Positions 9,853 to 30,293 of a stretch of 36,091 nucleotides of DNA are shown piece by piece; positions within the stretch are counted from its first letter, which is position 1, and every line of letters starts with the position of its first letter. A program made the translations under genes and the position numbers. The stretch lies in IMG/VR virus record IMGVR_UViG_3300045988_081375, positions 1 to 36,091 of that record; one strand, 5' to 3'. The notes beneath the pieces were generated by a model. That model was not told the origin of the DNA, did not search any database, and saw only the letters and a list, made by a program, of their open reading frames with translations. This stretch comes from a virus.

Positions 9853-10923
9853 ATGTTAAAAGTTAAGGGCATTGACATCAGCAGGGCACAGGAGCAGTTC
9901 GATTTTACGGCGGCTGTGTCGGCAGGCGTGAAGTTTGTAATTATCCGTGCCGGCATACGCACGGACGAGGACACTTATTTCAGACGCAATATCGAGCAGT
10001 GCAGAAAGCTCGGTATAGATTTCGGCTGTTACTGGTATGTTACGGCGGCAGACACAGCGGAGCTTGACAGGCAGATAAATGCGTGCGTCAAGGCAATAGG
10101 TGACGAAAAGCCGTCATATCCCGTGTTCTGCGACATGGAGGAACAGCGTCAGATAGACAACCTCACAAGCAAGGAAAGAACCGATATGGCGCTTGAGTTC
10201 TGCGACAGGCTGAATAAGGCAGGGCTTCCCTCGGGAGTGTACGCAAATCCTGCGTGGCTTGAAAGCTACTATCAGAAGGAACGTATTGTTGGAAAGCGTG
10301 ATATATGGCTTGCACACTGGACCGAAAGCCCGGATTATGCAAGCCGGTATGACTACGGGCAGAAAATGTGGCAGTGGGGCATTGACAGTATCGCAGGCAA
10401 GGACGTTGACGGGGATATTTGCTTTGTGGATTATCCTGCGATAACGGCAAAATGGTATAAGGAAAACTGCGGTGATATGCCGGAAAAGCCGGAAAAGCCC
10501 GATAAGCCTGAGAATCTGTTCAAAAAAGGCGACAGCGTGAGGGTGAAGCGTGGTGCAAGGTTCACAAACGGAGTAGAACCGTATTCTTATGTGTATGATA
10601 CGGTCTATACCGTTCAGCAGGTATCGGCAAGCGGCAAGGAAACGCTTATAGGCATCGGCTCGGTGCCTACCGGCTGGCTTTATACAGAGAATCTGTACAA
10701 GGCGGAAAGTGACGAGATAATGCAGAAATTCGCTGTAGGCGATAAAGTCAAGGTGAATTACGGTGCTAAGACGTATAACGGCGGTTCGCTTGCACTGTTT
10801 GTGTATACGAATGTGTACGAGGTTATGCAGGCAGGCTCGGGTGACAGAGAGGATTATATCGTCATCGGTCAGGGCGGGCAGGTCACTGCGGCGGTAAGAG
10901 CGGAGGATTTAAAGAAGGTTTAA
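9853..10923 (+). CDS. endolysin: GH25 muramidase with two C-terminal SH3-like wall-binding repeats
   Basis: N-terminus KGIDISRAQEQFDF...VKFVIIRAG...DVDGD matches GH25. A PEKPEKPDKPEN linker precedes two similar ~65-aa repeats (KKGDSVRVKRGARF... / AVGDKVKVNYGAKTY...). Confidence 0.9.
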   Translation: MLKVKGIDISRAQEQFDFTAAVSAGVKFVIIRAGIRTDEDTYFRRNIEQCRKLGIDFGCYWYVTAADTAELDRQINACVKAIGDEKPSYPVFCDMEEQRQIDNLTSKERTDMALEFCDRLNKAGLPSGVYANPAWLESYYQKERIVGKRDIWLAHWTESPDYASRYDYGQKMWQWGIDSIAGKDVDGDICFVDYPAITAKWYKENCGDMPEKPEKPDKPENLFKKGDSVRVKRGARFTNGVEPYSYVYDTVYTVQQVSASGKETLIGIGSVPTGWLYTENLYKAESDEIMQKFAVGDKVKVNYGAKTYNGGSLALFVYTNVYEVMQAGSGDREDYIVIGQGGQVTAAVRAEDLKKV

Positions 10924-10984: not shown

Positions 10985-11705
10985 CAAAAATAAACCACCG
11001 CTTGAAGCGGTGGAATAAAAGACTTTAGTAAAAAGCCCTCCTATGATATAATAGAAGTGGGTTTGGCAACCACATGAATATCAAAAGGAGGACTGTCAAA
11101 TGAATGACAATCATAGTTTATCACATTCAAAGTGGAATTGCAAGTATCACATAGTATTCGCACCGAAATACCGAAGGCAGGTAGTGTACGGGCAGTTGAA
11201 AGCAGATATAGGGAAAATACTGCGAACATTATGTGAACAGAAAAAAGTGAATATAATCGAAGCAGAAGCATGCCCGGATCACATACATATGTTGGTGGAA
11301 ATACCACCGAACATAAGTGTAGCGCAGTTTATGGGGTATCTAAAAGGAAAGAGCTCATAGATGATATTTGATAGGCATGCAAATTTGAAATACAAGTATG
11401 GGAATCGGCATTTCTGGTGCAGAGGATATTACGTAGATACAGTAGGAAAGAACAAAAAGGCAATAGAAGAATACATACGAAACCAACTTACAGAAGATAT
11501 AGCAAACGATCAAATAACACTGAAAGAGTATATTGACCCGTTTACGGGTAGCAAGAACCAGTAAGCAAAAAGAAACAGCCACTTGAGTGGCTGCTGTAAA
11601 TGAGATGCGGTTGCCAGACTTTTCAGTGTGCCTTCAGGCACAAGCCGGTATTATGCCCTTGAAGGGCAAGTGCATACCACGCGTTCAACGCGTGGTTTTG
11701 ATTAT
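10985..11705 (+). mobile_element. IS200/IS605-family insertion sequence (boundaries approximate)
   Basis: About 0.7 kb carrying a Y1 HUH transposase gene. Subterminal hairpins are ccaccgc-ttgaa-gcggtgg (10995-11013) and ccacgcg-ttcaa-cgcgtgg (11677-11695). No terminal inverted repeats, as expected for this family. Confidence 0.75.
11100..11564 (+). pseudogene. tnpA: IS200-type TnpA (Y1 HUH transposase) interrupted by an in-frame TAG at 11358-11360
   Basis: The two ORFs (11100-11360 and 11361-11564) are in the same frame. Together they read ...HSKWNCKYHIVFAPKYRR...PDHIHMLVEIP...FMGYLKGKSS*MIFDRH...FWCRGYYVDTVGKN. From memory, the canonical protein has Leu at the stop position. Confidence 0.85.
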
Positions 11706-12010: not shown

Positions 12011-13162
12011 TTACGTTGCTTGTCGCAATTTTGCGTTCAAATGTTCGTTAAATTTATCAATATTTTTTGCCTTGTAAGTCTTGTCTAAGTGCGTGTAAAT
12101 TTTGAGGGTTGTGGATATATCCTTGTGGCCTGCCTGCTCTTTTGCTGTCATAATATCCACCCCTGCAAGATACATCAAGGTTATAAATGTATGACGTAAG
12201 CAGTGGGCTGTGAAAGGTTCAATCACGAACGGAACACCACCGGGCTGAAAACGGCTTGTCGGTTTGTCGGATAATGTGTTATCAAAATTGCCGTGCTCAT
12301 AGTTCAGGACGGACATATAACTTTCCCACATTCTGCGCCAGGACGTGTTGCTGTGCATCTTGTCATTTGCAGTCCGGCATACGAGAAAGCCGTCATGCTC
12401 CGCACCTTTCAGATAGTCAACGAGCACATCGGGAATATAGACAATTCGTTTTGCGCTTTCGGACTTGCCGTAGTTTTTGACTTTAGCCTGATTGCCTGAG
12501 AACTCTACAAATCGTGCTACCTTGATAGTTTTGCCGCTAAGGTCAATATCATTCCATTGAAGCGGTATAAGCTCGCTCTTTCGTAACCCGGCATACATCA
12601 TGATCATTGCAGCAGTCTGGGCTCTGTGGGGCGTAGTTCTTATCCACTCCTGCTCTTCATCGGTCAGAGCACGGCGCTCCTCCGCAGGCTTTACCTTTGC
12701 AGGAAGTTTTACATTCCGGAAAACGTTATAGTCGGTGGCTCTGTTCTCAATAGCCAGGTCAAGGACACTTACCGATATTTCATACACCGCTTTAATTGTT
12801 CTCTTGGAATAGTCCTCCTGAGCCATATCTATGAGAATATCACGCAAATCCGATGAGGACAGTTTTGCTATCGGAAGATTATACAACGGTTCAAGGTGCT
12901 TGTAGTAGCTCTGCGTATTCTTATACCACTGTTCCGAAACGTCGGGTTGCTTGTATTTTATCCACTTTTTGCCCCAGTAGTCGAAGGTTTCACGGCAAGC
13001 ATCAAGATCTATACCTTTACCAAGCTTGATTTTAAGCGAGTTGGACTTTTCTTCGACTTCTTTCTTTGTGTTTCCGTAAACAACACGGTATTTCTGCTTG
13101 CCGTTGTTATCGGTACCGATATAAACCGATTGCTGATAACGGCCGTCCGCACGTTTTTTCAT
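12011..13162 (-). CDS. int: tyrosine site-specific integrase
   Basis: 383 aa. The C-terminal catalytic region AHCLRHTFITLMYLAGVDIMTAKEQAGHKDISTTLKIYTHL holds the R/H-x-x-R/H/Y signature. RBS aggagg. Adjacent to the attP-like region. Confidence 0.95.
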   Translation of the reverse strand: MKKRADGRYQQSVYIGTDNNGKQKYRVVYGNTKKEVEEKSNSLKIKLGKGIDLDACRETFDYWGKKWIKYKQPDVSEQWYKNTQSYYKHLEPLYNLPIAKLSSSDLRDILIDMAQEDYSKRTIKAVYEISVSVLDLAIENRATDYNVFRNVKLPAKVKPAEERRALTDEEQEWIRTTPHRAQTAAMIMMYAGLRKSELIPLQWNDIDLSGKTIKVARFVEFSGNQAKVKNYGKSESAKRIVYIPDVLVDYLKGAEHDGFLVCRTANDKMHSNTSWRRMWESYMSVLNYEHGNFDNTLSDKPTSRFQPGGVPFVIEPFTAHCLRHTFITLMYLAGVDIMTAKEQAGHKDISTTLKIYTHLDKTYKAKNIDKFNEHLNAKLRQAT

Positions 13163-13178
13163 ATTTACACCTCCTATA

Positions 13179-13210
13179 ATATTTCCCCGCTTGTTACGGC
13201 GGGGAAATAT
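13179..13210 (-). terminator. 12-bp hairpin between the accessory genes and int (possible attenuator)
   Basis: atatttccccgc/gcggggaaatat stem starting right after the stop of the 175-aa ORF. There is no strong T-run, so termination efficiency is uncertain. Confidence 0.4.
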
Positions 13211-13738
13211 TCATATATTTGCGTTTTTACCGTAGAATATCTTGCCGCTTTCTAAGTTCTTTTTGTAATAGCAGGATTTAGAACGGATTATATCCGGGTG
13301 CAAGCACTTTTTAGCATCTGAACACTTCAAATATAATCCGCAACACCCAAAATGATCTGTTGGCTCAAATATTCTGACATTCTCATCAGTAATAAGTTCA
13401 GCAGCTTTTACAGCTTCGTTTTGTGTGTGGAATGTACATTGTATGAAATTCTGAGGGCTTTTCAGCAATTTTGTACCTGCAGGAGATATTTCAAGCGTAT
13501 CATAAACTCTTTTATTGCAAGAAATTACCGTGAATTTTGTATTCACTTTGAAGAAAAGACATTTTTCAAAATAGATCGAATACCCGGTAAGTTTGTCTTT
13601 GCTTTTGTTTTCCTGTATGCTGAAAAGCCCGTTTGAACATTTCCATTTTGCTGAAACTGTGACTATTATGTTTTCTAAAGTAGTTTTACAATCTAAATCT
13701 TCGGGTTCATTTTCAAATAATGCTACCTGCTCTATCAT
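13211..13738 (-). CDS. hypothetical protein with C-terminal Cys cluster
   Basis: 175 aa. Its ATGA start-stop overlap with the upstream exonuclease gene indicates translational coupling. C-terminus FGCCGLYLKCSDAKKCLHPDIIRSKSCYYKKNLESGKIFYG. AT-rich. Confidence 0.7.
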   Translation of the reverse strand: MIEQVALFENEPEDLDCKTTLENIIVTVSAKWKCSNGLFSIQENKSKDKLTGYSIYFEKCLFFKVNTKFTVISCNKRVYDTLEISPAGTKLLKSPQNFIQCTFHTQNEAVKAAELITDENVRIFEPTDHFGCCGLYLKCSDAKKCLHPDIIRSKSCYYKKNLESGKIFYGKNANI

Positions 13739-14820
13739 AACTGCACATCCTTTTCTTTTAGTATCATAATCGGATAGCCTTTGCTTCTGAGTTCAATTGC
13801 TTTCTTCGCCTTAGTGCCATAAGTTCCGCAAGCCCAGCTGTCAGAACCTTTTTCGCCTATAAGAAGAATGTCGGTTTTTCTTGTAACGTTACTAACTACC
13901 GTAGCACCTATTTCAGACAATCTTTCTTGTACTTCTTGCTTACTCCCATAATCAAAATCACCGGTCAGACAGATAGACTTGTTGCTAAGCTCTATATCAA
14001 CGGCTCCTATTTCTGCATTAAGCGGATTGATTTGTGCTTTAAAAAATTCGAGGAGATAATCGAGCTCGGATTGCTCTATTATTCCGTCCTCAATCACTTT
14101 CCAGATTGCGTTATTTATAATGTCGTATGGGTAATTACCTGCGAGCTGTTCGTTATTGTTCATCCATTCTTCAAGTCTTAACAGTTCTTCTTGTGTTAGA
14201 ATGTCATCGCAGGTTATGCCTATCAATATGCCGTGCAAAGTTTGTAACCCTTTTGTAATAGGATTCAGCACTCTTTGTTTCGGCGGCTTTATTTCAAGTA
14301 CAAGAGCGGAATGATTTTTCAATGCTGTCATTAAGCTGTGAGTATGGTAGCAGTCTGCAAGAGCTCTGTGATGTATACCGCTATCTTTTATTCCGAGCTG
14401 TATTATCATATCTTCGAGCTTGTGGCTGACATCGGGGTATTCTTGCTTGCATGCAGCCAAAGTATCGTATGTATCATTTTTAAAATCAAGCCCATAAGCA
14501 ACGCATTTTTTACTGATGAAATTAGCGTCAAATGCAATGTTATGTCCTACGACCGTATCATTATCAACAAATCGCAGAAAATCAGATAGGGTATCGTCAA
14601 GCTCTTTTGCATCTGCCAACATATCATCTGTTATGCCGGTAATCTGAGAAATAGTTTTTGACAACGGCTTGCTCGCTTTTATAAGCTGAGAAAATTCAGC
14701 AACGATTTTGTTATCACGAACACGCAAAGCACCGATTTCGATGATATTATCATTGTCCGGCGATAAGCCTGTTGTTTCGATGTCTACTATCGAGCAGTCG
14801 TTCAGTTCCTGTATATTCAT
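13735..14820 (-). CDS. DnaQ-like DEDDh 3'-5' exonuclease fused to a C-terminal BRCT domain
   Basis: Exo I VDIETTGL, Exo II GHNIAFDANFI, Exo III HRALADCYHTHSL. The C-terminus ICLTGDFDYGSKQEVQERLSEIGATVVSNVTRKTDILLIGEKGS...KAKKAIELRSKGYPIMILKE resembles the LigA BRCT domain. Confidence 0.85.
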   Translation of the reverse strand: MNIQELNDCSIVDIETTGLSPDNDNIIEIGALRVRDNKIVAEFSQLIKASKPLSKTISQITGITDDMLADAKELDDTLSDFLRFVDNDTVVGHNIAFDANFISKKCVAYGLDFKNDTYDTLAACKQEYPDVSHKLEDMIIQLGIKDSGIHHRALADCYHTHSLMTALKNHSALVLEIKPPKQRVLNPITKGLQTLHGILIGITCDDILTQEELLRLEEWMNNNEQLAGNYPYDIINNAIWKVIEDGIIEQSELDYLLEFFKAQINPLNAEIGAVDIELSNKSICLTGDFDYGSKQEVQERLSEIGATVVSNVTRKTDILLIGEKGSDSWACGTYGTKAKKAIELRSKGYPIMILKEKDVQL

Positions 14821-14844
14821 TGTTGCACCTCCTATTTCAAACGC

Positions 14845-15603
14845 TTAATAACAACGACTGCTTACTGCAAATATGTAATCCTTCGAATAAAAAAAGAAAG
14901 GTTTTATCGGTACTTTAGTCTGCTCGTAGTTCCAACAAGCGTCAAACATTTTGTTTTCGATATCGAGTAATGAATCTACGTTAATACCTTTGCGTTGCTG
15001 TTCAGAATGTGACATCAATTGTATTTTGTCAATATCAGTACCACTAAGATACTGCCATATTTCGTATGACAAACTGGATATTCTATTTTGCACCACAACG
15101 GTAGACACATTGTACATATTACTTAGTTTTTCCGATAAATCAAAAATTGGCATTGAGTGCTCGTCAAATGTTTTACTTTCATTTCTAATTATCGGAAGTA
15201 TTTCTTTGTATGGCATAAGAAATTCAGCTGCACCCTCATTTGCAAGCCATTCAATATAACTATTTTGATTAGGTCTAGTATTTCCAAAACAATTCAAAGT
15301 AGTTCCAGGCTCATCAACAGTCAAAATGTGTGTTAGTTCATGAAATCCATGATAGTTTTGTTCGACAAACGACTTGTTTTCGTTTAATAGTATAACATGA
15401 TTCTCATCTCTGTTTTTAGCAATTCTAACAATTCCTCGCAAATCATACGTCGAAAAAGGAAGTGTTTTTATCTTAACATTCTTAAATTTCTTACATAATT
15501 CAAAAATATCAAGAGGATAATCTGAACTAGAAATATTAAACTGGACTCTTTTTTCTGCGATTAACTTATATAGTTTTTCCTTAGTGTAGTAACTAATAAT
15601 TAT
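14845..15603 (-). CDS. ImmA/IrrE-family metalloprotease (start codon uncertain)
   Basis: HEXXH motif in HGFHELTHIL. The only ATG/GTG/TTG start is TTG at 15441. However, the frame is open up to 15609 and encodes ImmA-like N-terminal sequence (PLDIFELCKKFKNVKIKTLPFSTYDLRG). Candidate ATA/ATT starts lie at 15603/15600 just after AGGAGG. Confidence 0.75.
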   Translation of the reverse strand: MIISYYTKEKLYKLIAEKRVQFNISSSDYPLDIFELCKKFKNVKIKTLPFSTYDLRGIVRIAKNRDENHVILLNENKSFVEQNYHGFHELTHILTVDEPGTTLNCFGNTRPNQNSYIEWLANEGAAEFLMPYKEILPIIRNESKTFDEHSMPIFDLSEKLSNMYNVSTVVVQNRISSLSYEIWQYLSGTDIDKIQLMSHSEQQRKGINVDSLLDIENKMFDACWNYEQTKVPIKPFFFYSKDYIFAVSSRCY

Positions 15604-15935
15604 TCCTCCTTATTGCCCTTATCTTTAAGTTTCAAAATCATTGCAATTGCCATTTCAATATCATTAGGGTCTATTCCATTGTCTTGTGCTTTTTTTGCGA
15701 AACTAAAATAAATATTATTCACTTCATTGTTTAGATTACTATCGTCACCTATCAAATCACTAACTGAGACGCACAAAAAAGTTGCAATTTCTTTTAAGTA
15801 TTTATTGTATGATCTGCTTTTTCCGTTTTTCCATGCTGAATAAGTACTTTTATCTAACCCTAGATAATCGGTGAGTTCTTTTTGTGTTTTATTTTTTTTA
15901 ATAAGCAATTCTGAAATTTTATCTATTATCTCCAT
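15600..15935 (-). CDS. XRE-family HTH repressor (CI-like)
   Basis: ATG at 15935 after the RBS aaggaggg. HTH KTQKELTDYLGLDKSTYSAWKNGKS. Divergent from the Cro-like gene and upstream of ImmA. Confidence 0.85.
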   Translation of the reverse strand: MEIIDKISELLIKKNKTQKELTDYLGLDKSTYSAWKNGKSRSYNKYLKEIATFLCVSVSDLIGDDSNLNNEVNNIYFSFAKKAQDNGIDPNDIEMAIAMILKLKDKGNKEE

Positions 15936-15968
15936 ATTTTCACCCTCCTTTTTGTTGGGATTTAACAA

Positions 15969-16193
15969 AGTTGAAAAAATAACAACTTAAAGGGTTGACA
16001 ATTGGAATAATATCAACTATAATATGCGTATACGGTTGATGAAATTCCAACTTTTCTTTAGTTCAAGTTTAGCTGACAGACTAAAGGAAAGTTTACAATT
16101 TTTAAACTTTGTTGATTTAATAGTAACAGTTTTATCAACTTGTGTCAATAGTATCAAACGAAATTTGTTGATTTGCTGAAAGGAGGTAGGAAT
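15969..16193. promoter_or_regulatory. lysis-lysogeny switch region with repeated ATCAAC/GTTGAT half-sites
   Basis: Hexamers at 16012, 16035, 16111, 16134 and 16167, plus the variant ATCAAA at 16153. An 11-bp direct repeat TTTGTTGATTT lies at 16108-16118 and 16164-16174. The inverted repeat AAGTTG..CAACTT is at 15968-15988. Confidence 0.6.
15995..16023 (+). promoter_or_regulatory. perfect consensus sigma-70 promoter for the early rightward operon
   Basis: TTGACA at 15995-16000, a 17-nt spacer, and TATAAT at 16018-16023. The -10 is bracketed by ATCAAC and GTTGAT half-sites. Confidence 0.75.
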
Positions 16194-28309: not shown

Positions 28310-28503
28310 CGATAGACGAAGTTCAGCAGGCTATTGTAAGCGGTCAGACCGTAAGGCATACACACGGAGGAATAACCGCCGAATACACAATAAGCGGTGT
28401 TATATCCCGTTACAGCAAGATAAGAGGCTGGTATTATGTGCTTGAGCTTAAAGACAAGAAAGCAGACAGCTTGTCTGTTGTGAATATGGAGGAGGTACAA
28501 TGA
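28306..28503 (+). CDS. hypothetical protein
   Basis: 65 aa with 4-nt overlaps on both sides. No recognisable motif. Confidence 0.5.
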   Translation: MTIDEVQQAIVSGQTVRHTHGGITAEYTISGVISRYSKIRGWYYVLELKDKKADSLSVVNMEEVQ

Positions 28504-28877
28504 CCAAACAAGAACTTAAAGATTACCGCTACACCTGCAAGTGTATCAAGCAGCTTGAATCAGAGTTGAACGATGCGGCAGTAACCGACAGCACGCAGGG
28601 TTCGCAGAGCGAGTACCCCTATGTCAAACATAGCGTCACGATTTCCGGCGTTCCGGATAACGATACACACCTTGCCAAGAAAAGAAGACTGTCCGAACTT
28701 AAAGCACAGAAAGCAGAAGTAGAACGCTTCATCGGCAATATTGCGGACAATCAGACAAGGGATATGTTCTACTACAGGTACATACAAGGCTATACAATGG
28801 TGAGAACTGCGGTAGAAATCGGTGGAGATAACACACCCGACAGTGTGAGAATGCGAATAAATCGGTATTTGCGTTAA
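28500..28877 (+). CDS. putative late transcriptional activator (sigma region-4-like, ArpU/RinA/DUF1492-type)
   Basis: 125 aa and the last gene before the packaging module. The N-terminal ELKDYRY...I..LE.EL and C-terminal FYYRYIQGYTMVRTAVEIG..TPDSVRMRINRYL pattern is typical of such regulators. Confidence 0.5.
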   Translation: MTKQELKDYRYTCKCIKQLESELNDAAVTDSTQGSQSEYPYVKHSVTISGVPDNDTHLAKKRRLSELKAQKAEVERFIGNIADNQTRDMFYYRYIQGYTMVRTAVEIGGDNTPDSVRMRINRYLR

Positions 28878-28940
28878 TGTTGTTCGTTTTGTTCGTTTTA
28901 AGGGTGCTATAATTTAAAATGACAAAATATAAATAAATTG

Positions 28941-28969
28941 TTGACACCTCCAAAATAATCGGTTATAAT
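28941..28969 (+). promoter_or_regulatory. perfect consensus sigma-70 promoter of the second moron
   Basis: TTGACA at 28941-28946, an exact 17-nt spacer, and TATAAT at 28964-28969. Confidence 0.75.
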
Positions 28970-29000
28970 GTAGAAAACTGGTGTTTTTTTGGAGGTGTCA

Positions 29001-29876
29001 ATGATGAGTGAACAAAATGTAAAACAATCAAAAAGTGATTCTGAAGTCCAAAATAATAAAAAATGTTTTATAATCATGCCTATATCTACACCAGAGGGCT
29101 ATACAGAGAATCATTTTAAGCAAGTTTATGAGACGATAATTGCGCCAGCCGTAGTAAAAGCTGGTTATGAGCCTTATAGAGTGGATGATGATCGTATTTG
29201 TGATAGCATAATCGATAAAATATTGAGAAATCTTGTCGAATGCGAAATGGCAGTATGTGATTTAAGCTCAAGAAATCCTAATGTCATGTATGAATTAGGC
29301 ATAAGACAGGCTTACGGCAAAAAAGTTGTTTTAATACAAGATGAGAAATCTCAACCTATATTTGATGTCTCAGCAATCAATACTGTGTTCTATAATAGTA
29401 GACGCATCTATGAAGACGTTATTGCGTCCCAAAACAATATTTCAGAAGCAATAATATCAACAGCTAAAGAAGATAGTATTTCATTAATGTCGATTGCGAA
29501 TATGCGTCCTGCTACTATTGAAGCGCAGAGTGAAAATGATGATAAGCAGATTTCAGAAAAGTTGTTACTTTCAATTTTAAGCACAGTAAGAAGATTGGAA
29601 CAATCACAAGTGATGCAAAGTAGAAAATTGAATGTTCCTATTACGTCTAACGATTACATACTTGCTAGATATTTCGATTTGCAAAATGATATTGATAAAG
29701 CAATTAGCCGTCAAAAAGTTGATAAAGATGAGCTAGATTACTATCGTAGAAAAATATCATTTTTTATTAGTGAACTGCTACATGATTCAAATATGTTGTC
29801 TGATGAACAAAAAGATATTTTAGCTTCAGCTATCAATATTAGAAATAAATTACAAACTATGATTGATGAAATATAA
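29001..29876 (+). CDS. moron protein: Rossmann-like deoxyribosyltransferase/TIR-like N-domain plus helical C-domain (function unknown)
   Basis: ATG at 29001 after GGAGG. N-domain pattern CFIIMPIS...VYETIIAPAVVKAGYEPYRVDDD...CEMAVCDLSSRNPNVMYELGIRQAYGKKVVLIQDE. About one third G+C in hand-counted 60-nt lines, against about 45 percent in flanking genes. Confidence 0.8.
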   Translation: MMSEQNVKQSKSDSEVQNNKKCFIIMPISTPEGYTENHFKQVYETIIAPAVVKAGYEPYRVDDDRICDSIIDKILRNLVECEMAVCDLSSRNPNVMYELGIRQAYGKKVVLIQDEKSQPIFDVSAINTVFYNSRRIYEDVIASQNNISEAIISTAKEDSISLMSIANMRPATIEAQSENDDKQISEKLLLSILSTVRRLEQSQVMQSRKLNVPITSNDYILARYFDLQNDIDKAISRQKVDKDELDYYRRKISFFISELLHDSNMLSDEQKDILASAINIRNKLQTMIDEI

Positions 29877-29939: not shown

Positions 29940-30293
29940 GTGACCGAAAGACAGAAGAAATTCGCCGAATATTACGCTCAGTGCGGTAACGCCGCCCAGA
30001 GTGCAATACAGGCAGGATACAGCAAAAAGTATGCAAATACTAATGCTTCAAAATTACTACAAAATACTACAATTACGGAATACATAAAACAGCTCACCGA
30101 AGACGCCCAGACTGCACGCATAATGACCGCCTGCGAACGGCAAGCTTTGTTATCCGATATAGCTAAGGATAAACAGAACGAGCTGTCGGACAGGATACGG
30201 GCAATAGACACGCTGAATAAGATGACGGGGGAGTACACGCAGAAGGTCAGCATTGACGGAGATGTGGGAGTGAAGATAGTTGACGACTGTTAA
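29940..30293 (+). CDS. terS: terminase small subunit (Terminase_2 type)
   Basis: GTG start. RQKKFAEYYAQCGNAAQSAIQAGYSKKYANTNASKLLQN is the classic small-terminase HTH. Confidence 0.85.
   Translation: MTERQKKFAEYYAQCGNAAQSAIQAGYSKKYANTNASKLLQNTTITEYIKQLTEDAQTARIMTACERQALLSDIAKDKQNELSDRIRAIDTLNKMTGEYTQKVSIDGDVGVKIVDDC

Follow-up and report, generated by a model that had tools for sequence, protein, structure and literature searches.

A mobile exonuclease-BRCT and cysteine-cluster gene pair in the repressor-to-integrase operon of a gut Clostridia phage is a candidate lysogen-expressed nuclease module

The repressor-to-integrase operon of a gut Clostridia phage contains a two-gene cassette (gene 3 and gene 4) that encodes an exonuclease-BRCT protein and a protein with a C-terminal cysteine cluster. 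The window, which is the whole stretch of DNA that was analysed, is 36,091 nt long. Judged from its sequence, the pair matches no described system and is a good candidate for a nuclease module expressed in the lysogen. The most likely reading, which we put forward tentatively, is an exonuclease complex aimed at nicks or 3' ends and carried as accessory cargo for exclusion or defence. From genomic position and domain logic, we infer that this role could be directed against other phages.

The operon consists of five co-directional minus-strand genes that encode an XRE repressor, an ImmA/M78 protein, the products of genes 3 and 4, and an integrase. The first-pass annotation described tight packing here, and the gene coordinates agree with it. 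The XRE/Cro-CI-type repressor (15600..15968, 122 aa) matches HTH_3 (E = 3e-7) as well as phrog_8 and phrog_4 (transcriptional regulator/repressor). It is followed by an ImmA-like M78 metallopeptidase (14845..15597; Peptidase_M78, E = 9e-13) with a HELTH motif. The frame of this gene is open from 15609 to its stop at 14845, and it contains no ATG, GTG or TTG upstream of its first canonical start, a TTG at 15441. The 52 extra residues encoded upstream of 15441 resemble an ImmA N-terminus, and translation likely begins at a non-canonical ATT (15597) that lies 7 nt after AAGGAGG and abuts the XRE stop (15600-15602). A 24-nt gap (14821-14844) containing the ribosome binding site AGGAGG separates ImmA from gene 3 (13735-14820, 361 aa), which is joined to gene 4 (13211-13738, 175 aa) by an ATGA overlap. 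The last gene encodes a tyrosine integrase of 383 aa (12011..13162) that is recognised by profile matches, including its Phage_integrase domain. A hairpin with a 14-bp stem (13178..13211) reaches into the gene 4 stop codon and precedes the integrase RBS. This hairpin is confined to the present integrase lineage and is outside the shared cassette.

Co-directional HTH_3, Peptidase_M78 and Phage_integrase genes identify the surrounding operon as an ImmR-ImmA-Int lysogeny module. The same arrangement of XRE repressor, M78 protease and tyrosine integrase occurs in modules of the ICEBs1/phi105 type, but here the 1.6-kb cassette interrupts their contiguity, and it is also found with immunity systems that lack ImmA. 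In a consensus scan, the sole strong leftward promoter-like site (TTGACA-17-TACTAT with TG; 16120..16148, minus strand) is upstream of XRE, where it could drive a leftward XRE-ImmA-gene 3-gene 4(-int) operon. A perfect divergent site from the same scan (TTGACA-17-TATAAT; 15995-16023, plus strand) would serve the cro-like and antirepressor genes, and the scan found no comparable site directly upstream of gene 3.

Nucleotide identity of 94-98% with 13 IMG/VR contigs is confined to positions 13204-14839 in blastn alignments, and the flanking immunity genes and integrases of those contigs are unrelated at the nucleotide level. Because the identity spans exactly the RBS and both genes while the flanks are unrelated, this 1,636-bp segment of the minus strand (13204..14839) is a mobile, promoter-less two-gene cassette. 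Its boundaries are those of the blastn alignments, and the junction sequences can be seen in one of the compared loci (L006). The earlier proposal that these genes had been inserted as cargo into a repressor-ImmA-integrase operon is thus upheld. Both genes are under purifying selection (dN/dS across 14 haplotypes: gene 3, 0.12; gene 4, 0.10). The cassette is also AT-richer than the rest of the window (37.8% versus 46.4% G+C; gene 3, 39.5%; gene 4, 34.3%), as had been noticed. However, this property is not specific to the cassette. XRE (29% G+C) and ImmA (32%) are AT-richer still, so the entire lysogeny arm is AT-rich and not the insert alone.

Gene 3 has the three parts that were originally ascribed to it. 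Residues 1-175 (14296..14820, minus strand) form a DEDDh 3'-5' exonuclease domain of the PolC/DnaQ/DinG-N clade. Pfam RNase_T matches residues 11-160 (E = 4e-30; 106 bits against a cut-off of 24), and all five catalytic residues are intact (D13 and E15 in the DxE of Exo I, D98 in the (N)x3-4D of Exo II, and H151 and D156 in the Hx4D of Exo III). The motif residues are invariant in 53 homologues, and their columns show 100% conservation across 70-71 proteins that are paired with diverged gene 4 proteins. A modelled homologue matches the folds of DnaQ, PolC and DinG in this domain (TM 0.8-0.89, normalised to the target). Motifs, Pfam match and modelled fold all place gene 3 in the DEDDh (DnaQ-like) 3'-5' exonuclease superfamily, whose fold is RNase H-like. 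Residues 176-270 (14011..14295, minus strand) are an unannotated middle domain with a conserved W and a GNYP[FY]D motif, and the homologue model has four helices in this region. It is covered by phrog_3989, a family of unknown function (E = 3e-41), and its profile finds nothing significant in PDB or Pfam, where TerB, DUF533 and EF-hand reach no better than E = 0.05-0.08. The C-terminal residues 271-361 (13738..14010, minus strand) are a LigA-type BRCT domain. Pfam BRCT (PF00533) matches residues 278-345 at 27.7 bits, above the gathering cut-off of 21.3, and the nearest solved relatives are the BRCT domains of the NAD+-dependent ligases in LigA structures 2owo and 5tt5 (E = 8e-5). PHROG families of NAD-dependent ligases match as well.

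Gene 4 is divided into two very unequally conserved parts. Residues 126-175 (13214..13363, minus strand) carry an invariant cluster of five cysteines with a histidine and end in an NLxxGKIFYGxN tail, giving the overall motif FGCCxxYxxCSDAxxCxH…CxY…NLxxGKIFYGxN. The dense cysteine cluster reported previously is real: C132, C133, C139, C145 and C156 occur in every one of 77 diverged homologues, and one histidine is frequent. No other part of the module is as well conserved as this segment (53% mean identity, dN/dS = 0.02). Residues 1-125 (13364..13738, minus strand) form a hypervariable alpha/beta domain of three helices and six strands whose mean pairwise identity is 14%. Over short timescales it is under purifying selection (dN/dS = 0.14), a point against the exclusion or defence reading. 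A contrast of 14% with 53% mean identity is typical of sensor and effector-binding subunits. For the cysteine module, a Zn or Fe-S site is probable; no metal-binding family in Pfam or PDB matches it.

Gene 4 has no match in Pfam, NCBIfam, PHROGs, PADLOC or the PDB sequence profiles, yet its family is large, with 1,339 representatives at 50% identity. A Foldseek search of PDB and BFVD returned nothing below an E value of 0.01. The best Foldseek match of the N-terminal domain is a weak resemblance to the MotA C-terminal domain. The T4 MotA 'double-wing' DNA-binding fold, for which TM > 0.5 and E < 1e-3 were demanded, was rejected at E = 0.011 and TM 0.32/0.46 (1kaf), with BFVD giving no better values. 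Among the cultured phages of INPHARED, there is no match to gene 4, even with the consensus motif, and gene 3 finds matches through its exonuclease domain only. The C-terminal motif as a lone query retrieves short fragments or remnants and no architectures. A 174-aa ORF beyond a large helicase in one locus (L117) was considered as a gene 4 homologue and proved not to be one.

Genes 3 and 4 are consistently linked. A gene 3 homologue adjoins gene 4 on the same strand or is fused to it in 101 of the 114 loci found through gene 4, being directly upstream in 57, directly downstream in 21 and fused in 23. Both the neighbouring genes and the fusions occur in either order, and the exceptions are mostly cuts at contig ends. 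Because the loci were retrieved independently, this pattern is more than chance. It fits the two-gene pair proposed at first and makes a strong case that the products are functionally coupled. The outcome that the first-pass annotation named as refuting its idea, unlinked homologues or homologues mainly in housekeeping loci, did not materialise: the homologues are linked elsewhere too, and most are in prophage lysogeny modules. An AlphaFold2 model of one natural fusion (P0100) has confident domains (pLDDT 85) and no confident packing between them (pTM 0.47), and a PDB fold search with this model is dominated by the exonuclease domain.

Tight organization with translational coupling through the ATGA overlap, in a mobile and promoter-less cassette, would also suit a toxin-antitoxin or addiction pair in which the Cys-cluster protein restrains an exonuclease toxin and stabilises the prophage. 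Natural variants of the same prophage that keep gene 4 and lose gene 3 agree with such an arrangement. In these variants, an in-frame deletion of 1,380 bp (13692..15071, minus strand) removes gene 3 and leaves a fusion of ImmA residues 1-123 with gene 4 residues 17-175. They persist in 9 contigs, which points to gene 3 being dispensable. However, the 23 single-polypeptide fusions in both orders are difficult to reconcile with a toxin and its antitoxin, gene 3-type proteins often occur where gene 4 is missing, a chimeric ORF (P0176) retains the exonuclease domain and lacks gene 4, and PADLOC and Pfam find no antitoxin-like fold. We consider an addiction pair very improbable. The same genomic slot also holds proteins with the exonuclease, middle and BRCT domains where gene 4 is absent (L142-L158), as well as middle-BRCT proteins that lack the exonuclease domain (L159-L161). 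Whatever the slot-specific role may be, it can thus dispense with gene 4 and even with the nuclease, which counts against the exclusion or defence reading. The first-pass annotation had missed these gene 3-like genes, the gene 3-less variants and the recurring association with LigA described below.

The usual position of the cassette is between an XRE-type repressor and a tyrosine or serine recombinase. The neighbour counts rest on a crude, greedy ORF-picking routine. Among 150 upstream ORFs (two per locus, from about 80 loci), 35 have HTH_3, 7 have M78 and 4 have S24 domains, and 11 tyrosine and 11 serine recombinases occur among 150 downstream ORFs. A same-strand recombinase is downstream in 36 of 84 clusters, and about half of the distinct clusters have no recombinase within the retrieved sequence. 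Other downstream cargo includes RhuM/PDC-S05, Fic/SoFic, restriction-endonuclease-like, GNAT and NUDIX genes. Because the usual XRE-type repressor may come with M78, with S24 or with neither, the cassette is not specific to ImmA.

This distribution bears on the initial suggestion that the pair supplies a DNA-damage input to ImmA, which it disfavours. A dedicated ImmA accessory or sensor was rejected on the basis of the few M78 genes upstream, the occurrence of LexA-like S24 or XRE-only contexts, and the movement of the cassette independently of the immunity genes. A broader version is that the complex makes or destroys 3' single-stranded DNA at breaks or nicks and so tunes the damage signal (RecA filament/ssDNA) behind cleavage of an ImmA-controlled or S24 repressor. 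DNA damage or single-stranded DNA elicits a response from ImmA-like CapP/IrrE proteases, and both the predicted co-transcription of the cassette with repressor and protease (from gene layout and the promoter scan) and its recurrent place directly after XRE, M78 or S24 genes are compatible with modulation of induction. One locus (L116) even has a HIRAN gene, which encodes a 3'-end-binding domain, between XRE and M78. Yet the exchange of the cassette without its immunity genes, its association with three different repressor architectures, and its presence away from any detectable repressor or recombinase, including beside ligA, all make this function quite improbable, and self-cleaving S24 repressors require no extra sensor.

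A few rare family members are associated with LigA. In chromosomal variants, an exonuclease-gene 4 fusion is encoded immediately 3' of a full-length ligA (L095) and a gene 4-like gene is downstream of bona fide ligA (L164 and L165). One gene 4 homologue that adjoins an exonuclease gene has LigA domain Ia at its N-terminus. Solo NLig-Ia proteins exist in phages (PMC9503650). Together with the LigA-type BRCT domain of gene 3 and a full-length homologue of gene 3 that occurs by itself in a chromosomal setting, these examples could point to a fitness factor that cleans or proofreads 3' termini at nicks for sealing by LigA, to the benefit of the lysogen or the phage genome. The closest characterised exonuclease-BRCT protein, mycobacterial DnaQ (Rv3711c/MSMEG_6275), has been reported as an alternative proofreader (bioRxiv 10.1101/2023.10.24.563508), which is in keeping with repair. 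This DnaQ and PRK06195 (NCBIfam NF004844, 'DNA polymerase III subunit epsilon') resemble gene 3 in having an N-terminal DEDDh domain and a C-terminal BRCT domain. PRK06195 aligns to gene 3 residues 12-358 at 84 bits, far under the family cut-off of 373, and gene 3 was not assigned to it. Unlike these chromosomal replication genes, gene 3 is prophage cargo with an extra helical middle domain of ~95 aa and an obligate-looking Cys-cluster partner. No clamp-binding motif (QL[SD]LF-like) is present in gene 3 or gene 4, which speaks against repair, and in the context of a prophage lysogeny operon we rejected a clamp-tethered replicative proofreader (epsilon/DnaQ). Adjacency to ligA was seen in only two or three lineages, whereas the repressor-to-recombinase slot accounts for at least 36 of 84 clusters. 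Mobility between unrelated phages and natural loss fit accessory cargo better, and a hypervariable partner domain would be unusual for a housekeeping repair factor. A repair role thus seems unlikely.

The pair differs from LigA itself (domains Ia-NTase-OB-Zn-HhH-BRCT) in lacking nucleotidyltransferase, OB and HhH domains and in having an exonuclease rather than a ligase as its catalytic module. The gene 4 cysteine module is also unlike the C4 zinc finger of LigA, with no match to Pfam DNA_ligase_ZBD. One can imagine a ligase turned inside out, in which LigA-type parts for nick recognition (the BRCT domain and sometimes domain Ia), with the cysteine module as a new metal-binding partner of the BRCT/exonuclease protein, bring a 3'-5' exonuclease to nicks in place of a nucleotidyltransferase and convert ligatable nicks into gaps. 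Targets of such 'anti-ligation' might be the annealed cos ends or replication intermediates of superinfecting phages. This is a rather far-fetched reading that, if true, would define an undescribed class of prophage exclusion system with the new, large gene 4 family as its specificity and regulatory subunit.

The impression that the pair is not a named defence system was sustained. PADLOC 2.0 finds nothing for gene 4, and gene 3 and ten natural fusions match in the exonuclease domain only. A full-text literature search found no description of an exonuclease-BRCT prophage module, and homology to validated defence proteins does not extend beyond the generic exonuclease domain. The PADLOC candidate PDC-S48 and Cas-associated DEDDh proteins belong to the same exonuclease clade (E = 6e-37 and 7e-31), and PDB entries 8fy9, 8fyc and 8h18 (CRISPR-associated DEDDh/Cas2-DnaQ) match this domain of gene 3. 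However, about 170 of 411 or 512 profile positions align, even in exonuclease-BRCT-gene 4 fusions, and these proteins have neither a BRCT nor a Cys-cluster domain. Membership in PDC-S48 was rejected since the alignment covers only profile positions ~4-190, the exonuclease domain. CRISPR-associated DEDDh (Cas2-DnaQ) was rejected since gene 3 has no Cas2 domain and sits among the XRE, ImmA, gene 4 and integrase genes; the window contains no Cas2 or cas genes.

Exclusion and defence cargo is well known from immunity regions. Lambda rexAB is co-transcribed with cI, lactococcal and streptococcal sie/ltp genes are between repressor and integrase, and prophage-mediated defence is also known in mycobacteriophages. 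The cassette follows the same genomic logic, being in or beside the repressor transcription unit and exchangeable between phages, but it has no sequence or domain similarity to these membrane or ion-channel proteins, lipoproteins and other effectors.

An exclusion or defence complex of this kind would be transcribed from the repressor promoter in the lysogen. Domain homology predicts that gene 3 is an active 3'-5' DNA exonuclease, which would be guided to nicks or recessed DNA ends by its LigA-type BRCT domain and possibly by the helical middle domain. Fusions and linkage suggest gene 4 as the partner subunit. Its cysteine module may dock on or regulate the exonuclease-BRCT protein or may bind the same DNA structure, and the hypervariable alpha/beta domain could supply specificity. 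As cargo of the rexAB or sie type, the pair might then attack foreign DNA, whether incoming or replicating, at 3' ends or nicks, leading to superinfection exclusion or defence, and it would stand apart from the core of the immunity switch.

If the pair has this function, then it would be a system widespread among Clostridia prophages of the gut and rumen and absent from current defence catalogues, with a new effector architecture (DEDDh exonuclease, helical domain and BRCT) and an unannotated family of Cys-cluster partners. Should its role lie in tuning induction or repairing nicks, it would bear on how gut prophages sense or shape DNA-damage signals. Bacterial BRCT domains are poorly understood outside LigA, and a conserved partner with ties to ligA and to domain Ia gives a way into the question of their targets. 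At 1.6 kb the cassette is compact and self-contained, and the natural deletion variants of the same prophage provide a comparison. Known defence genes are only sporadic among the neighbours, which weighs against a defence role. In its favour, one locus in the repressor slot has Abi_alpha nearby, and a gene 3 relative is found in an island with E1/E2/JAB, Fic and DUF4011 helicase-nuclease genes.

Genes 3 and 4, which encode an exonuclease-BRCT protein and a partner with a C-terminal Cys cluster (the C-module), evidently form a real, selected and mobile two-gene unit. A search of IMG/VR and GTDB genomes with a gene 4 profile yields 112 loci, nearly all in Clostridia from the gut or rumen, and direct look-ups add two more. 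Most of these 114 loci come from metagenome-assembled genomes, and retrieval used patterns in the conserved C-motif, which gene 4 variants lacking this motif would escape. A gene 3 homologue lies on the same strand immediately upstream of gene 4 in 57/114 loci and immediately downstream in 21/114, is fused with it into one ORF in 23/114, and is adjacent on the opposite strand in 2/114. It is not found in 11/114, which are mostly cut by contig ends or are remnants (one has no callable gene 4 ORF). Co-occurrence of the homologues elsewhere beside immunity genes, which the first-pass annotation had named as a check on its reading, is thus borne out to the extent that the pair is adjacent or fused in most loci. 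The natural fusions lead us to infer that the two proteins physically associate.

The pair is also a mobile cassette, one that appears to lie outside the immunity switch. When the window is compared by blastn with 17 close IMG/VR contigs, two are the same phage and one has the immunity arm in common and a different integrase. Another 13 are 94-98% identical, limited to window positions 13204-14839, a stretch that starts 19 nt ahead of the gene 3 ATG and runs to 7 nt past the gene 4 stop. Around the cassette, these 13 phages have immunity genes unrelated to those of the window and another integrase. A comparison of 14 haplotypes gives dN/dS values of 0.12 (gene 3) and 0.10 (gene 4, with 0.14 in its N-domain and 0.02 in its C-module). 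The cassette has 37.8% G+C versus 46.4% in the remaining window, and the XRE repressor (29%) and ImmA (32%) genes are lower still.

Gene 3 (13735-14820, minus strand, 361 aa) is identified by its domain matches as a DEDDh exonuclease with intact catalytic residues and a LigA-type BRCT domain. Its Pfam matches are RNase_T (E 4e-30) and BRCT (27.7 bits versus a cut-off of 21.3), and the exonuclease motif residues are D13/E15, D98 and H151/D156. The closest solved structures to the exonuclease are the PolC exonuclease domain, S. thermophilus DnaQ, Cas2-DEDDh and the DinG N-terminal domain, and LigA is the closest solved relative of the BRCT domain. Residues 176-270 between them form an unannotated domain spanned by phrog_3989 ('unknown function', E 3e-41), which AlphaFold models as a four-helix unit in P0100, a natural fusion with 40% identity; a profile of this middle domain finds no significant match in the PDB or Pfam. 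When the loci are grouped into 84 clusters at 90% identity, none of the five catalytic residues varies in the 70-71 exonuclease-bearing partners, and mean pairwise identity across clusters is 31% for the exonuclease, 26% for the middle domain and 36% for BRCT.

Gene 4 (13211-13738, minus strand, 175 aa) belongs to a new Cys5 family, tightly coupled to the exonuclease-BRCT protein. It has no match in Pfam, PHROGs, PADLOC, NCBIfam or, by profile, the PDB, and no carrier exists among the GenBank phages in INPHARED. In a set of 1.84 billion proteins, its profile recovers 1,339 representatives at 50% identity, 1,154 of them with E ≤ 1e-10; many are fused, on one side or the other, to an exonuclease domain, a BRCT domain or both. 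The C-module has a mean pairwise identity of 53% across clusters, compared with 14% for the N-domain, and five cysteines, one Ser, one Tyr and one Gly are 100% conserved in 77 homologues. We infer that the Cys5 module is a putative metal-binding site. A confident structural model (pLDDT 81.7) consists of an alpha/beta N-domain of three helices and six strands, followed by a small, helical C-terminus rich in Cys. Foldseek returns nothing below E 0.01 for this model; its top fold match, the T4 MotA DNA-binding domain, was rejected with a TM of only 0.32/0.46.

The assertion in the first-pass annotation that the pair is no named defence system holds, since PADLOC matches are confined to the gene 3 exonuclease domain, which is all that PDC-S48 and the Cas-associated DEDDh model have in common with it. 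Mycobacterial DnaQ and PRK06195 share the exonuclease-BRCT architecture. However, gene 3 scores 84 bits against PRK06195, below the cut-off of 373, and it differs from both in having an extra domain and a partner protein and in lacking a clamp-binding motif. No paper describing such a module was found in the literature. The pair would be prophage accessory nuclease cargo, and what is new is the partner family.

Prophage lysogeny modules are the preferred location of the pair. For the fetched loci, a simple greedy ORF picker supplied the neighbouring genes, which HMMER then assigned by comparison with Pfam or seed proteins. Among the two upstream ORFs of the 84 clusters, XRE-type HTH proteins are enriched (35/150), accompanied by M78 (7/150) and S24 (4/150) proteins. 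Downstream, the corresponding two ORFs comprise 11 tyrosine recombinases, 11 large serine recombinases and otherwise typical accessory cargo (RhuM/PDC-S05, Fic/SoFic, restriction-endonuclease-like, GNAT and NUDIX). A recombinase follows on the same strand in 36/84 clusters, in 26/62 of those whose downstream sequence reaches at least 3 kb, and within 500 nt in 12. By Pfam assignment, representative orders are S24 repressor, exonuclease-BRCT, gene 4, RhuM and integrase (L001); M78, exonuclease-BRCT, gene 4 and integrase (L002); XRE-HIRAN-M78, pair and serine recombinase (L116); XRE, a 560-aa fusion and, farther on, integrase (L162); and Abi_alpha, then farther on XRE-M78 and the pair (L166). 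In the L116 immunity operon, the HIRAN-domain gene (1959-2789) is placed upstream of the pair, with the XRE repressor on one side and the M78 protease on the other; HIRAN is a further DNA-3'-end-binding module.

The pair is thus cargo of lysogeny modules, and the repressor systems it occurs with are of three kinds. This variety argues against the dedicated DNA-damage input to ImmA that had been one of two initial proposals, which is disfavoured. Modulation of the DNA-damage signal for prophage induction by the pair is rather improbable.

The minus-strand order in the window is XRE repressor (15600-15968), ImmA-like M78 peptidase (stop at 14845), gene 3, gene 4 and tyrosine integrase (12011-13162). 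The tight packing reported earlier is confirmed, with a 24-nt gap containing AGGAGG ahead of gene 3 and with genes 3 and 4 overlapping at ATGA. The first canonical ImmA start is a TTG at 15441, and the upstream stretch covering the first ~52 residues contains no ATG, GTG or TTG. Because the frame is open from 15609 and the 52 added residues resemble an ImmA N-terminus, the start is likely an ATT at 15597, 7 nt past AAGGAGG. This non-canonical start abuts the XRE stop, which suggests translational coupling with XRE. The sole strong leftward promoter-like site (16148-16120) lies upstream of XRE, so genes 3 and 4 are most simply read as members of the repressor operon. The cro-like and Bro/ANT genes have a divergent site that matches the promoter consensus perfectly. 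A hairpin (13178-13211, 14-bp stem) overlaps the gene 4 stop directly 5' of the integrase RBS and may attenuate read-through into int; it is missing in other phages bearing the same cassette.

In nine contigs from several samples (including loci L121-L123), the same prophage lacks 13692-15071 and is 97-100% identical on each side of the gap. This 1,380-bp deletion is in frame, joining the catalytic half of ImmA (residues 1-123) to gene 4 17-175 with loss of gene 3. Since such natural variants persist, gene 3 is dispensable for prophage carriage, as accessory cargo would be. Three further chimeric ORFs (P0001, P0197 and P0176) span ImmA, gene 3, gene 4 and int; they join ImmA 1-60 to gene 4, ImmA 1-86 to gene 3 residues 228-361, and gene 3 residues 1-272 to the integrase C-terminus, and those on single contigs are possible assembly artefacts.

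Partial architectures occur elsewhere. A separate phage clade (L142-L158) fills the same XRE-to-integrase slot with 450-aa exonuclease-middle-BRCT genes and has no gene 4 there. In L159-L161, middle-middle-BRCT proteins that lack an exonuclease domain are encoded immediately ahead of recombinases, and in L119 a full-length homologue of gene 3 occurs by itself in chromosomal surroundings. Four clusters have exonuclease and gene 4 and no BRCT. Gene 4 nearly always has an exonuclease or BRCT partner and the converse is not so, which makes gene 4 look like a subunit added on. A toxin-antitoxin-like pair is very improbable. At L117 (8001-14976), a gene 3-like exonuclease for which no BRCT match is recorded is followed by a protein of 1,937 aa with DUF4011, SF1 helicase, MTES_1575 nuclease and DUF3320 domains. 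The island around them also contains E1/E2/JAB genes, Fic genes and serine recombinases, and the two may belong to a separate conflict system that includes an exonuclease.

Several loci connect the module with LigA. One gene 4 homologue (L115 2181-3101), placed after an exonuclease gene, has an N-terminal LigA domain Ia (NLig-Ia); solo phage NLig-Ia proteins have been proposed as NAD+ sensors (PMC9503650). An exonuclease-gene 4 fusion directly follows full-length ligA at L095 (2585-6147), and at L164/L165 (L164 2368-5115) a short gene 4-like gene follows ligA with no exonuclease nearby. Together with the LigA-like BRCT, this fusion and adjacency suggest, without proof, that the module, like LigA, acts at nicks. 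A ligase-assisting DNA-repair fitness factor would fit these ligA connections as well and is unlikely. We tentatively favor a candidate lysogen-expressed exonuclease complex that serves exclusion or defence, in which the repressor promoter would drive cassette expression and BRCT would direct the complex to nicks or 3' ends.

Homology with integrated copies of this phage (L003, L014 and L121) stops at ~11866, beyond the integrase. Because it ends there, the att site is predicted at this position, and the window would be an excised, circular or otherwise permuted form. Between the lysin gene (9853-10923) and this prophage end, an IS200-like Y1 transposase gene (11100-11564, plus strand) is interrupted by an in-frame TAG (11358-11360) where the family presumably has Leu. 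It is either a nonsense-mutated pseudogene or contains a read-through or recoded stop. A second low-G+C island (28500-29876, plus strand, 33-37%) directly upstream of the small terminase gene (29940-30293) has two ORFs (125 and 295 aa) without Pfam matches and may be another piece of cargo.
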